The notes under the pieces were generated by a model. That model had not been told where the DNA came from. It searched no databases and saw only the letters and a list, made by a program, of their open reading frames with translations. 64,000 nt of DNA from Octopus vulgaris (Eukaryota). Numbering within the stretch: the first letter of the stretch is position 1; each line of letters starts with the position of its first letter. Where the stretch lies: NCBI GenBank assembly GCA_951406725.2, contig OX597823.1, forward strand, positions 6,386,001-6,450,000, written 5' to 3'. The translations under genes were made by a program, and so were the position numbers. This document shows positions 6,418 through 64,000 of the stretch, piece after piece.

Positions 6418-6514
6418 GAATTTGTATAACAATGATAAATCTCTGAACGAGGTATAATGGTATCAAGAAAATTGCAGGAGGTATTTTCTAGAACCTTTCT
6501 CGTTTAACAGAATT
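6418..6514 (+). pseudogene. LRR pseudo-exon with a 25-nt insertion and an in-frame TAG
   Basis: ag|G AAT TTG TAT AAC AAT GAT [25 nt] ATC AAG...TTC TAG AAC CTT...GAA TT|gt; removing the insertion gives 72 nt, NLYNNDIKKIAGGIF*NLSRLTEL. Confidence 0.75.
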
Positions 6515-7119
6515 GTAATTTGGATCATTCTCGATAGTATTTCACTGCAGTCATATTTGTAATTTTTAATTACCATCCCATTCTATAGCTCTCTCTCTCT
6601 CTCTCTCTCTCTCTCTCTCTCTCTGCATTCTCATACCACCTCCACAGCTGTATGTGATTGTTTTTTAATGTCTGTCAATGTGAATGTGTGCGTGTGTATT
6701 TTTGTGTCCTTAGGCGTGTGTGTGTTAGTACATACGCGTGTGTGATTGTTCAAGCCGCACATTTTATGTATGTGTTCACATATGTTTATGTTTCGTGTAT
6801 GGATGGTTCAATACTAGTGTATCAACTTGTATTGATGTCTGTATAACATTTACTGCTTTTAGCTCTGGATCAACGTTGAATGCCAACCATCAATCTTCGA
6901 ATTGTAATTATAAAGCAATGTTACTCATGTATACAAATCTCTAAACTTCCAACTCTTAAACATTTATTTTCCAACCAGGACAAACATCATCATAAAAATG
7001 AATATTATCGCCATCATCAGCGTCCTCAGAAATGTCAACAGATCTATCAACACCATCACAAACCTCACCACTACCACCACCACCACTTTCCTAAATTTTT
7101 AGGCATTATACTTTATATT

Positions 7120-7191
7120 TCATTTGTATGAAAATCAAATCACTGAATTAGAAGCTGCATCTTTTCAGGATCTTCCCAGTTTAACGAATCT
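7120..7191 (+). pseudogene. LRR exon copy lacking its 3' splice acceptor
   Basis: Encodes HLYENQITELEAASFQDLPSLTNL with a GT donor, but the TTACAG acceptor of its paralog at 12297 is missing. Confidence 0.75.
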
Positions 7192-7869
7192 GTAAATTTA
7201 ATTAGTCTTTTGGTTGTCTTTTATTGACTATATAATTCTAAAATTTAATGTCTCTCAATGCTTTCTTTTTTCTCTCACTCTTCTTAACGCACTATATACA
7301 CTATATACACTCGGTCGATTTCCACAGGAACATGTATTCGTTGTGACTATCTGACAAGTTATGTGTATGTGTGAATATCAGTGTCTAGGTTTATGTATGA
7401 GTCTCTGATAATTAATGTATAGGATCTTTGTACATGTGTGTCTATGTGTATGTGTCTGTCTGTATGAGTGAAAGTACACGAGTGAGCGACTTGACTTTTA
7501 TATCTTTTTGTATATTATTTATTATATTTATTTCTCGATCAACGCTGATTACTATTCATGGCTCTCCGTTCTAATTATTTCCATTCAGCGTAATTTTATT
7601 TCAACTTTTCTATTTCTTTATCATTTACTCCTAAACACGAAACATGCATCTGCCTAAATTTCTTCTTTTATATCGAAAATTTCTTTTTACTTCTCATTCT
7701 CCCCCTCCTCATCCACCACCACATCCTCCTCCTTCTTCTACCACAACAATAGCGACTTCGACTACTGCTACTACTACTACTACTACTACTACTACTACTA
7801 CTACTACTACTACTACTACTACTACTAATAATAATAATAATAATAATAATAATAATAATTTCATTTTCT

Positions 7870-9062
7870 GGCTACTAGTGCCGATGTAAAGGGGACAATA
7901 CAGCAGACGGGGACAGTGGGGATTTTACAAAAACAACTAAACAGTTACGAAAACAATAACAAAATATATGAAACAATAAAAAATATTACAGTGACATTTC
8001 CCAATAGGGGTGATGACCACCGATGGTTGGCTAAGATAATCCCCAATGCTGAACCACCCGATGCTTCGATGGTGATCGGGAACCGGTGCACCTCTCCTCC
8101 TCAAATTCACCAAAATACAGACGCATTATTTGAGTACGTCCACCCACGCAGGTCATTTCGCTTCATTCACACACATTTCAGCAAATGCATGGGGTAGCAT
8201 TTATTCTTTGTATAGCCTCATCTTCCTTTCCAAGTGAAATCTGAGAATTCCCTGCTCTTCTTGGCCAAAGAAGTCGGTGGTTCAATCTTCACTATGGACT
8301 CGGCCGTTTACCTCACTCATACTAAACTCAGCAACAACTGTTCGACATAACCCCAAATGTGAGTAATGCATGACACTGAACGAGTGTTTGCAGTACGGTT
8401 TTGTCGCTCTACCTACAACTAGGGCAAGTATGGGTGAGACCACTTCCGCACCTGTAGAGTTTATCACGGACCTGTAGTGTCCCCTGCTGGTAGTACTGGA
8501 AAGGGAGGGATTTCTGGAAGTTATCCATGGTCCCCGGCACAAAAGTCTTCTGAATCAGACTGCTCAGTTCGAATTCCCTGATGTGCTTCATCGTAATTTT
8601 TCCACCAGTAACCCTGTTCAGAATTCAAGCGTTGATACTCCACTGACAGATTTTCTCACCTGGAAGATGGTAATGGAAAAGGGTACTGGGCTTCTTCTTC
8701 ACCTAGGACTGCAACTCATTTAAGGAGAGGAGCTGGGAAAGTACATCTATGTCAAAAGGAGATTACACCTGTTCAACGTTTAGGCTCAATATCTGGATAT
8801 ACCGCATCCTCAGCGCATGTCTACTCATCATAAGCCACGGCATGCCTAATATCTAACATAGAGGTTGCTGGCAGCGGATGAACGCCTCACCAACCAAACC
8901 TCTGCACAAGAATGTGAAGAGGAGTTGCTCCAGCTTGGCGATGCGCGAGAGGGCGCAAAACACGACGGTCAACGGGTAGTAGACGAACGGTACGTAAATG
9001 ACGACCGCGATGAACGCATTTGCCACATCCAACCTCCTCTGCTCCTCCCCGACTTTTCCGGG
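7870..9062 (-). mobile_element. L1/Tx1-like LINE ORF2 3' fragment
   Basis: Minus-strand AKLEQLLFTFL segment and RDKLYRCG..CPSC zinc-finger-like segment; GC-richer than flanks. Confidence 0.6.
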
Positions 9063-9244
9063 TGACATTTCTTCTCCACTTCCACATCATCATACTCATC
9101 ACTGCCCTTAATCCACCCAATTTTATCTCCAAAATCATTATGAAGTTCATCTTGATAGTAATCTACTTTTCAGCTTTTGCATCATCCAATTCTTTAGACA
9201 CAAATTTGTTCAATAAATGTTCTTCACTCAATGTTATGTTTCAG

Positions 9245-9316
9245 GAAATTGTTCGAAAATAGAATTAAGAATATCAAAGCAGGAACCTTCCGAAATCTTT
9301 CCAGTTTAACAAGTCT
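9245..9316 (+). CDS. 72-nt LRR exon, class A: KLFENRIKNIKAGTFRNLSSLTSL
   Basis: tttcag|...CT|gtaagt; phase 2-2; LRR consensus. Confidence 0.9.
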
Positions 9317-10406
9317 GTAAGTTGAATCAACCTCCTTTTATAGTATTTCTTTGACAATATCTTTCTAAATCTGTAATGTCTTTCTATAGACACAATTTAT
9401 AGTTTGTCACCTTCATCTCCTTTTATGACTTTTTCTGCTTCTTTAATTTTTTTTTTTGGCCTGTAGTTCTAGTACTTCCTCTTCTCCTGCTATTTATTCT
9501 CCATCTTATTCTTATTTTCCTACTTGTTCTTCCTCTCCTCTTCCCCATCTCTTCTTCTTCTTCTTCTTCTTCTTCTTCTTCTGCTTCTTCTTCTTCTTCT
9601 TCTTCTTCTTCTTCTTCTTCTTCTTCTTCTTCTTCTTCTTCTTCTTCTCCTTCTTCTCCTTCTTCTTCTTCTTCTTGCACTCACTCTTTCTTCATGTTCC
9701 TCGCTCTCTTCATTTCGTTCTATTTCTTGTTTCACGTTCACTCATCATTCTTCACTTCCCCTTCTTCTCCATTCCACATTCCTCTATTTTCCCTCTCTTC
9801 TGTTCTTGTTTTTCTTCCTCTTCCTCATGATCATCATGAGCATTATCATAATCATCTCCGTCGTCATCGTCTTGTTTTCTCGTCTTCCTTTTCACATCTC
9901 CTCCTTCTCCTCTTTGTCGTCGTCTGCCTCATCACCCTCTTCTTTCCCCTCTCTCTCGTCCCTCTCCCGCTCTTTCATTTGTTTGTTTCTTTAATATTTG
10001 TCTCATGTAAAAAAAACCTTCATCTTCTTCTTCGTCTTTCATCATAGTCAACGTCCACGTGATCAAGTTCTTCAATTTGTTCATGAAAAATCTTCATGAG
10101 GATCGCTATGTTCATCATTAGAATTATCATCATCACCATAAGCAGCATTAGTATCATCATCGTTATTCCCACTAAGTACATCACCCACCTCCTCATCCTC
10201 TGACATATCCGACCACCATCATCGTCGTCATCGTCACCTTTACTACGATCATCACCATCATCATGAGCGGCAGCAGCAGCACCATCATCAACATCATCAT
10301 CGTCTCCTAGTTCTTCCTTATCATAATCGTCGTTTTCTTTCCTCCTCCACATTCATCTAATTATTTCGTCATTATATTTTAAAAATTTACTCCGAATCAC
10401 ACTTTT

Positions 10407-62377: not shown

Positions 62378-62379
62378 TT

Positions 62380-62464
62380 AGATAGATAGATAGATAGATA
62401 GATAGATAGATAGATAGATAGATAGATAGATAGATAGATAGATAGATAGATAGATAGATAGATA
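62380..62464. repeat. (GATA)n microsatellite
   Basis: Direct reading. Confidence 0.95.
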
Positions 62465-63209
62465 CAAAAAATTCAGGGTGAATACTTGATAACTGTAAGC
62501 ACCTGTATATGCCAGCTAGTGGTATAGGTGATGAGGGAAAAAACGGTATGGATGTTTTGTTTTGGTGTCTCGCAATGCCATATACGCCTATTAGGATTTA
62601 CCTTCCCAATGAAACCCGTTTTTTTCCCAAACTTTTTCTCAAACCTGCTATAATGTAATACATGGCTTTGGTGTGGTAATTGTACGTGGCTGAAGAATGC
62701 TTTTGACCTACCTGTTATATCAATTATGCATAAATACAAATTGTTCAATAAAGCCAGAAACATATGTACCGCAAAATCCATTGCGTTCTGTTTTTCTTTT
62801 GACAGATAGATATAGATATATGAGTCTGTGTGCGCGCGCGAATGTGTGTGCACGCGTGTGTGTGTGTGCACGTGTTCGTGTATGTGTATTTGTGAATGTT
62901 TTTGTGCATTTCAGTGTATCAAATTGTATGTGAAATTCATTCTGTTTATCATGTGCAGTGTTCACCTGTCCACCAAAAAACATTAAACTCTACCACCACC
63001 ATTATCCATCTATTCCACCTCCTCCCCCTCGTCATTATCATCATCATCGTTATCATCATCATCATGAACATCATCAGCGCCATAAACTTTATGGAATTAA
63101 TAGTCATCGTATTCTACTTTCCATCGCTTCCATTCACTAATTATTTAGAGAAAATTTTGTCAAAAATATCTTCTATGCAATTTCTTATTAACTCCGTTTT
63201 ATGTTCCAG

Positions 63210-63281
63210 AGTTTTGCGTCATAATAACATTGAGGAAATCAAAGAAAATACCTTCCGAAATCTATCCAGTTTACAAAATCT
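63210..63281 (+). CDS. 72-nt LRR exon, class A: VLRHNNIEEIKENTFRNLSSLQNL
   Basis: ttccag|...CT|gtaagt. Confidence 0.92.
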
Positions 63282-63512
63282 GTAAGTTGAATAAGTATTT
63301 TTGTATAGGATTTCATTAACGATATTGTTGAAAATCTGCAATATCGTCCCATCTTTCATTTTAAGCTCCCTCATCCGACTTACTCCTCCTCATTATTACC
63401 ATCACCATTATCTACTTTGTTTTTCTTCCACCAAGTATTCGTTTGACAATAATATTGTATGTTGTACAACTCTTCGATAATTTCTGTTACCAATTAATAT
63501 TTTTTGTTACAG

Positions 63513-63584
63513 ATATTTGCAAAATAATAATATCGAAAAAATTGAGGTAACAGCCTTGCATGACCTGACCAGTTTGCGGATACT
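63513..63584 (+). CDS. 72-nt LRR exon, class C: YLQNNNIEKIEVTALHDLTSLRIL
   Basis: ttacag|...CT|gtaagt. Confidence 0.88.
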
Positions 63585-63981
63585 GTAAGTTCGATACATC
63601 TTGTTGATAATATTTCATTGTCAATGTTCTGCTAAATCTTTAAAATATCCCCATTCGCACTGTCTTTGAATAGAAATGTGTGATTGCTTCTGAATGTCTG
63701 TAAATATATATATGTGTCTGTTTCCAGTTCTTATTCATCACTTCCAACACCACCACCGCAACGCCCACTATTAACTTTACCACCACCATAATCCTTCTAC
63801 TCCATTTCCTCACCATCATCGTCATTATCATTATCACCATCATCATGAACATCACCATCAACACCATGGACTTTATGGAATTAATCATGATCGTAATCTA
63901 CTTTCCATCTTTTCCATCATCAAATTGTTCGCCACAAAAAGGTTCCATGCAATTTCTTATTCACTCAATTTTATGTTTCAG

Positions 63982-64000
63982 ATACCTGAGTGATAATAAT
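63982..64000 (+). CDS. Start of the next LRR exon, class A: YLSDNN...
   Basis: caattttatgtttcag|A TAC CTG AGT GAT AAT AAT; cut by the window end. Confidence 0.8.

Follow-up and report, generated by a model that had tools for sequence, protein, structure and literature searches.

We found that a stretch of 64,000 nucleotides from Octopus vulgaris (assembly GCA_951406725.2, contig OX597823.1; C10:6386001-6450000 (G000), forward strand, within a 2.8-Gb genome; hereafter the window) is the middle of one adhesion G protein-coupled receptor (GPCR) gene, in which 55 intact exons, each encoding a single leucine-rich repeat (LRR), precede the exons of the receptor proper. Our preferred reading, to which we assign a probability of about 0.6, is that these exons are mostly included in full, giving an accordion-like solenoid that is diversified in the germline, with cassette skipping as a secondary source of variation.

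The 20 intact 72-nt single-LRR exons predicted from the window were confirmed by a scan for AG-[72 nt]-GT splice-site frames that carry the LRR reading frame, and all of them lie on the plus strand, with none on the minus strand. As a chance control, 100 local shuffles yielded a mean of 0.07 exons and a maximum of 1, and a DNA profile scan of the reversed window gave one match, at E=1. The DNA profile also recovered the predicted 21st exon (63982) and two pseudo-exons (6418 and 7120). Exon ends are as had been described, A or G first and CT or AT last in 20/20 intact exons, and the window is indeed without other exon kinds, since no non-LRR family exon was found inside the array. The features are as follows, exons 20 to 39 being taken from the splice-site and LRR scan:

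1..64000, plus strand, middle of one adhesion-GPCR gene (neighbouring stretches read on both sides)
6418..6514, plus strand, pseudo-exon of 97 nt with in-frame stops, acceptor present, weak donor GTAATT
7120..7191, plus strand, pseudo-exon, acceptor AG lost, frame open
9245..9316, plus strand, LRR exon 20 of 55
12297..12368, plus strand, LRR exon 21
20213..20284, plus strand, LRR exon 22
22526..22597, plus strand, LRR exon 23
24996..25067, plus strand, LRR exon 24
27948..28019, plus strand, LRR exon 25
32605..32676, plus strand, LRR exon 26
35130..35201, plus strand, LRR exon 27
39782..39853, plus strand, LRR exon 28
47366..47437, plus strand, LRR exon 29
48771..48842, plus strand, LRR exon 30
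48965..49036, plus strand, LRR exon 31
52428..52499, plus strand, LRR exon 32
54633..54704, plus strand, LRR exon 33
54880..54951, plus strand, LRR exon 34
57686..57757, plus strand, LRR exon 35
59345..59416, plus strand, LRR exon 36
61133..61204, plus strand, LRR exon 37
63210..63281, plus strand, LRR exon 38
63513..63584, plus strand, LRR exon 39
63982..64000, plus strand, first 19 nt of LRR exon 40, which is intact at 72 nt with a GTAAGT donor in the assembly

The original prediction saw this array correctly and understated its extent: the whole runs over 140 kb (C10:6342219-6482489), with 55 intact and 4 broken exons, and its 5′ end is cut by an assembly gap. Upstream of the window are 19 further intact LRR exons (C10:6342219-6384733), and downstream another 15, ending at 6482489. 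The encoded peptides are distinct for 53 of the 55 exons. Exons 1-21 form a 5′ block of a different exon type from the middle block, and three of the four broken exons belong to it. The shortest intron of the array (122 nt) stands just before exon 31 (48965). Exon blocks recur, introns included, at 85-95% identity, which agrees with the proposal of a still-duplicating array, and the four broken exons agree with its tolerance of dead cassettes; false haplotype duplication was considered and rejected because the blocks are no more alike than that. One exon type carries a conserved second acceptor-like AG with a degenerate exon start, 56-77 nt upstream (window 47310-47365, C10:6342163, C8:79131355 and C8:79144724); its use would shift the frame.

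Adhesion-GPCR exons lie directly 3′ of the array, as befits the predicted ectodomain of an LRR receptor. Of 198 candidate proteins, 26 matched an open reading frame 19 kb beyond the array; all 26 are labelled Octopus and most are named ADGRG6-like. Mapping the matched proteins back to the locus gave a structure of 18 intact non-LRR exons (C10:6484065-6519971) ending in a stop. All have canonical AG/GT sites, and between the last LRR and the stop the reading frame stays open over 918 aa, of which 847/918 are identical to the O. sinensis protein P0042. The module order is LRRCT, Ly6-like, SEA-like, HormR, GAIN, GPS and class-B seven-transmembrane (7TM) domain (7tm_2). The GPS exon scores 58.2 bits with PF01825 (cut-off 22.5) and holds the motif CSCDHL|TSFAVLM; the last exon scores 34.6 bits with 7tm_2 (cut-off 20.6), for which P0042, 92% identical, scores 99.4 bits. 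For GAIN there are PF26588 hits in close homologs, and ADGRG2/G6 matches span residues 425-918 of the paralog P0003. The Ly6-like module is putative, named for a cysteine pattern (it ends in CCxxxxCN), and its PDB matches are weak (E 1.1 and 4.3); the SEA-like module is predicted by AlphaFold to take a ferredoxin-like fold. The AlphaFold model of P0003 is of low confidence (pLDDT 41), so our use of it was limited to the GAIN and ferredoxin-like regions. A long-ORF scan found no single-exon 7TM, this domain being divided over five exons.

The C-terminal exons form one set, all of it 3′ of the array and none inside; the original prediction had allowed for several short genes with overlooked terminal exons, and no N- or C-terminal exon was found inside the array. 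The parallels it had drawn, with LGR/RXFP/GRL101 receptors, Slit, Dscam and variable lymphocyte receptors (VLRs), were not borne out as an identity for the gene, the locus being a class-B adhesion GPCR by its GPS and 7tm_2 domains. Judged from sequence comparison, this adhesion GPCR is specific to octopus and has its homologs in group 3 as listed by Ritschard et al. (2019).

The presumed binding face of the solenoid is its fastest-changing part. Site classes were fixed beforehand from the LRR consensus, five concave positions being compared with the consensus positions, and 26 of 46 sister pairs were used, the 20 with a flank divergence of at least 0.2 being dropped; nonsynonymous (pN) and synonymous (pS) differences per site are uncorrected counts, under a model without gene conversion. 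Over the 26 family pairs, pS was 0.059 and flank divergence 0.056, with a pN of 0.116 at concave and 0.009 at consensus sites (concave-site excess, Fisher p=0.009; pair-bootstrap ratio 1.24-3.28), so that concave-face residues evolve at a pN/pS of about 2 family-wide. A second subfamily (11 pairs) gave a concave pN of 0.185 versus 0.067 (p=0.002). Among the 10 pairs with the gene under study, concave sites exceed other sites (p=0.001), and off the concave face its 5′-block exons are under purifying selection (pN 0.026 vs pS 0.070, p=0.018).

The genome holds about 50 paralogs, with matches to the GAIN exon in 54 and to the N-terminal exon in 51 of 58 candidates scored, both lower bounds. Their intact LRR exons number 5 in C10B, 9 in C30b, 12 each in C29a and C29b, 22 in C30a and at least 32 in the gap-cut C26. 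The C8 paralog (C8:79128857-79267653) is gap-free and has no dead exon: a signal/LRRNT exon is followed by 50 LRR exons (49 of 72 nt and one, in frame, of 69 nt) and LRRCT. It shows a repeated three-exon period, and the counterpart in O. bimaculoides (XP_052833813) bears the annotation toll-like receptor 5. One weak minus-strand match in C26 and two 11-bit partial matches in C8 were left out of the exon counts. AlphaFold models 13 consecutive LRRs of the family as one solenoid (pLDDT about 90), and of the family models examined from a profile search of 1.84 billion representatives, none exceeds about 17 LRRs.

Exon counts change fast, since C26, C29a and C29b have GAIN identities of 94-96% to the gene and yet differ in exon number. 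The nearest relative of an exon lies in the same gene for 38 of the first 44 exons, and in paralogs for 11/11 of the 3′ exons. C26 shares 5′-type and 3′ exons with the gene in the same order; one 3′ exon is absent from C26 and present in both the gene and the closest O. sinensis model. The dead exon at 6418 has an equivalent, also dead, in C26, where the counterpart of the pseudo-exon at 7120 is intact (15023951). We count six dead-exon lineages of independent origin; in five of them AG or GT has been lost while at least one copy retains an open frame.

Other members of the family show further features. A very recent tandem run of five exons with identical peptide and a period of about 1.86 kb (C29:15943606-15952858) has one exon with a GT-to-AT donor change and an N-terminal exon ahead; no GAIN exon was found nearby. 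A close paralog at C29:14044716-14206906 is probably a further long array, its LRR exon matches being scattered across more than 120 kb with no match to the N-terminal exon among them. The C31/C30b subfamily has a nearly fixed scaffold (NNIATIKEGAFTGLSNL) with the first four and last two residues hypervariable, a VLR-like pattern, and C31 has a frameshifted LRRCT near gaps. The O. bimaculoides protein P0325 (XP_052821851), a full-length member with about 17 LRRs, has a Death domain at its C terminus (28.8 bits, cut-off 22.6), a hint of immune-type signalling; the gene under study, unlike P0325, ends without one.

Under the full-inclusion reading, the 55 intact exons would mostly be spliced in full into one very long LRR arm, a solenoid of at least 1,300 aa in a protein that would reach about 2,300 aa with every exon included, and skipping of single or multiple exons would yield minor variants. 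Unequal crossing-over would add and remove the symmetric phase-2 exons in accordion fashion, a lost splice site would drop one repeat and leave the frame unharmed, and the ligand-facing residues would be diversified in the germline. By analogy with adhesion-GPCR biology, the protein may cleave itself at HL|T, its LRR arm may bind a varied cell-surface or foreign ligand, and TSFAVLM, as its tethered peptide, may carry the signal together with the 7TM; ligand or force might expose the tethered agonist, as the passages of PMC13197933 describe for known adhesion GPCRs.

Genomic and annotation evidence on splicing is largely in line with full inclusion. The GTAAGT donor is present in 49 of the 55 array exons, and the mean U1 match of the array donors (6.09 vs 6.18 for 17 non-LRR donors of the gene) marks them as constitutive in strength. 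Exon order is kept across species, 12/12 tested units of O. bimaculoides P0027 mapping in order to C8 exons 38-49, and O. sinensis P0199 joining C8 exons 1-5 in order. That any exon could splice in frame to any other, as the original prediction stressed, holds in all 165 exons of six paralogs; it is no argument for splicing, since the length of 72 = 3 x 24 and the invariant leucine of the LRR are enough to explain both this interchangeability and the Leu, Ile or Met split codon.

Several points weigh against this reading. Splicing of the gene is read from its genomic sequence and from annotation models of other paralogs, and database models of its clade cover at most the last 5-6 LRRs. A solenoid of 55 repeats would exceed any animal surface LRR protein known to us (chaoptin has about 41), and a literature search was without result. 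In the 10 pairs with this gene, concave pN does not significantly exceed pS (0.100 vs 0.070, p=0.51). Three C31 exons (70-74 nt) are frameshifted with both splice sites in place, although these may be sequence errors. Of the 22 intact genomic exons of C30a, the O. vulgaris models CAI9744518/7 take in only 14 and 11, and six isoforms of O. sinensis place 12 unit types in 9-11 slots, with two units found in a single isoform. Lastly, no signal/LRRNT exon was found in the 75 kb past the assembly gap, nor near the locus in a genome-wide search.

Such isoforms could mean that the gene works mainly by combinatorial skipping of cassettes: some 10-20 of the 55 exons, in varying selection, would enter each transcript, and one GPCR would yield a large repertoire of isoforms. 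We regard this reading as possible though doubtful. RefSeq isoforms generally rest on RNA alignments. Isoform sets from three paralogs, in O. bimaculoides, O. sinensis and O. vulgaris, differ in which whole LRR units they contain. In O. bimaculoides (XP_052833918-921), X1 has 14 units and X2, X3 and X4 each lack a different one; for O. sinensis (XP_036369232-238, six isoforms examined of at least nine), the first slots are variable and the last six constant, and X3/X4 exchange one unit for another. A locus with an identical N-terminal exon to which we mapped the O. sinensis isoforms was rejected, the LRRs being different. Skipping in C30a would be marked by junctions 19-21 and 9-21, which differ by 6/60 nt from any ordinary junction, and nearly all of the array peptides are distinct; adhesion GPCRs are extensively spliced according to passages of PMC13197933. 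On the other hand, the C30a junction 9-17 is set apart from the ordinary junction 16-17 by 1/60 nt, and the three skip junctions of O. bimaculoides depart from ordinary ones by 1-3/16 aa, so that misalignment among repeats is a plausible source of several annotated skip junctions. The longest O. bimaculoides isoform holds all units, the skipping evidence comes from annotation of other paralogs, and the strong donors, the conserved exon order and the lack of a dead exon among the 50 of C8 all favour inclusion.

The 5′ end bears on a different doubt, that the array is not one expressed unit, whether parts of two genes were joined by assembly or the 5′ block is an untranscribed leftover and the LRRs in use are those of the 3′ end alone. 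Extension of the locus had been proposed as a way to find other domains, and it brought LRRCT and 7TM exons and no signal/LRRNT exon, an exon that paralogs carry; the ectodomain of the gene is otherwise present. A 100-N gap lies at C10:6341138, 1.1 kb ahead of the first LRR exon, and with nothing of the kind found beyond it the count of 55 is a minimum. The array of C26 is likewise cut by a gap, the 5′-most exon type has close copies only within its own array, and an orphan N-terminal exon at C29:15962827 was rejected as the 5′ end because a different LRR type follows it. These gaps, the two exon types and the concentration of dead exons in the 5′ block suit a composite or relict array. Against it, there is neither a gap nor a terminal exon inside the array, purifying selection acts on the 5′-block exons, C26 repeats both exon types in the same order and a complete 50-exon paralog exists in C8; we think a composite or relict array improbable. 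Dscam-type mutually exclusive splicing through RNA pairing, with one or a few of the 55 exons chosen, would fit the many duplicated exons of equal phase that stand clustered between constant ones, as well as the X3/X4 swap. It is very improbable: a single LRR cannot fold alone, paralog models carry 9-14 LRRs or more, and even the shortest intron, at 122 nt, is too long to force exclusion. A docking-element scan for exact 11-mer complements, with wobble or gapped pairing and the missing 5′ intron outside its scope, gave no candidate, the best complement being shared by 1/55 and 4/49 exons and control windows reaching 9. Somatic assembly of LRR cassettes at the DNA level, as in VLRs but in haemocytes or neurons, suggested by the hypervariable concave face on a homogenised scaffold, strongest in the C30/C31 subfamily, is scarcely credible, as the units are spliceable AG/GT exons inside a transcription unit rather than donor cassettes round an incomplete gene, germline duplication accounts for the diversity and C8 is complete in the germline assembly. 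Mostly full inclusion with secondary skipping is the reading we retain.

The introns of the window also hold repeats. Non-LTR retroelement reverse transcriptase fragments lie at 548-2614 (minus strand) and 31366-31926 (plus strand), with RVT_1 scores of 48 and 32.6 bits. A 184-bp interspersed repeat forms tandem runs at 34277-34839, 50243-50967 and 60646-61011, and there are a 362-bp tandem (37297-38213) and a 51-bp minisatellite (53590-54161).

The family was previously represented by fragmentary models under misleading names (TLR5, chaoptin, Slit, LRRC15). Its actual form, an adhesion GPCR with an expandable LRR arm of at least 50-55 repeats that changes fastest on the binding face, indicates a large undescribed recognition repertoire in octopus, and even with constitutive splicing it offers a clear instance, in an animal, of a solenoid evolving exon by exon. 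A bolder and rather unlikely view is of a GPCR-based variable-receptor system, in which about 50 genes with 5 to 55+ LRR exons, their binding face under diversifying selection, would use regulated combinatorial skipping to make cell-specific, G-protein-coupled recognition arms; if true, this would amount to a recognition code of the Dscam/VLR type that serves the wiring of the arm nerve cord, chemotactile sensing or immunity. A literature search, with subscription papers outside its coverage, found no description of the array. The passages of a 2026 immune-diversification review (PMC13428168) mention no such cephalopod receptor, and those of an octopus visual-system preprint (10.1101/2022.06.11.495763), with supplements outside scope, mention only an unspecified lrrc marker.

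Among the closest described systems is group 3 itself, presented in the passages and tables of PMC6408891 as an octopus-specific adhesion-GPCR expansion with GPS and adhesion 7TM, arranged in tandem clusters, with LRRs noted in 5/22 sequences and models that are fragments with few LRRs. Its listed member A0A0L8GB41 is 72% identical to the GAIN exon of the gene, and A0A0L8FLR8 is 49% identical to P0042 over 1016 aa. The same passages and tables contain no one-LRR-per-exon arrays and no range of 5 to 55+, and the site test reported there found no selected sites. They give expression mostly in the axial nerve cord (0.50) and suboesophageal brain (0.29) for one of two group-3 homologs, which is a homolog and not a shown ortholog, and mostly in gills for C. 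minor group-3 genes.

Vertebrate ADGRG6 and ADGRG2 are the best PDB sequence matches (E 1e-50 to 1e-58). A low-confidence paralog model aligned with BAI3 HormR-GAIN (Z 11.4, root-mean-square deviation 6.4, 161 aligned) and, spanning the SEA-like module, with the zebrafish ADGRG6 ectodomain (Z 10.3, root-mean-square deviation 9.2, 188 aligned). ADGRG6 has CUB and pentraxin domains where the octopus gene has its LRR solenoid and putative Ly6-like module. The order LRR, LRRCT, HormR, GAIN, 7TM is that of ADGRA1-3/Remoulade; unlike ADGRA, P0042 has no Ig family (Pfam) and carries Cys-rich and ferredoxin-like modules in that place, and the octopus gene has far more LRRs and a 7TM/GAIN closer to ADGRG. 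Unlike LGR/RXFP/GRL101, P0042 and P0003 contain no 7tm_1 or LDLa at E<=0.1, with 7tm_2 and GPS instead.

With arthropod Dscam1 and agnathan VLRs the gene shares duplicated modules and a variable recognition surface, but paralog models give no sign of mutually exclusive choice, nor is there a sign of somatic assembly, and in contrast to the VLR germline gene its units are AG/GT exons inside the gene rather than flanking non-spliced donor cassettes. LRR exon modularity with skipping is known for human NLRs and Slit (passages of PMC6642158). The best analogue in how it works is the brown-algal ROCO family, for which passages of PMC3341825 and PMC11378527 report single-LRR exons of 72 bp in phase 2 that turn over, a concave face under diversifying selection, and splice variants that differ in their LRR sets. 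Because ROCOs are intracellular GTPases and the octopus gene encodes an animal cell-surface GPCR, with no ROC-COR domain and with GAIN-7TM downstream, the likeness is convergent.

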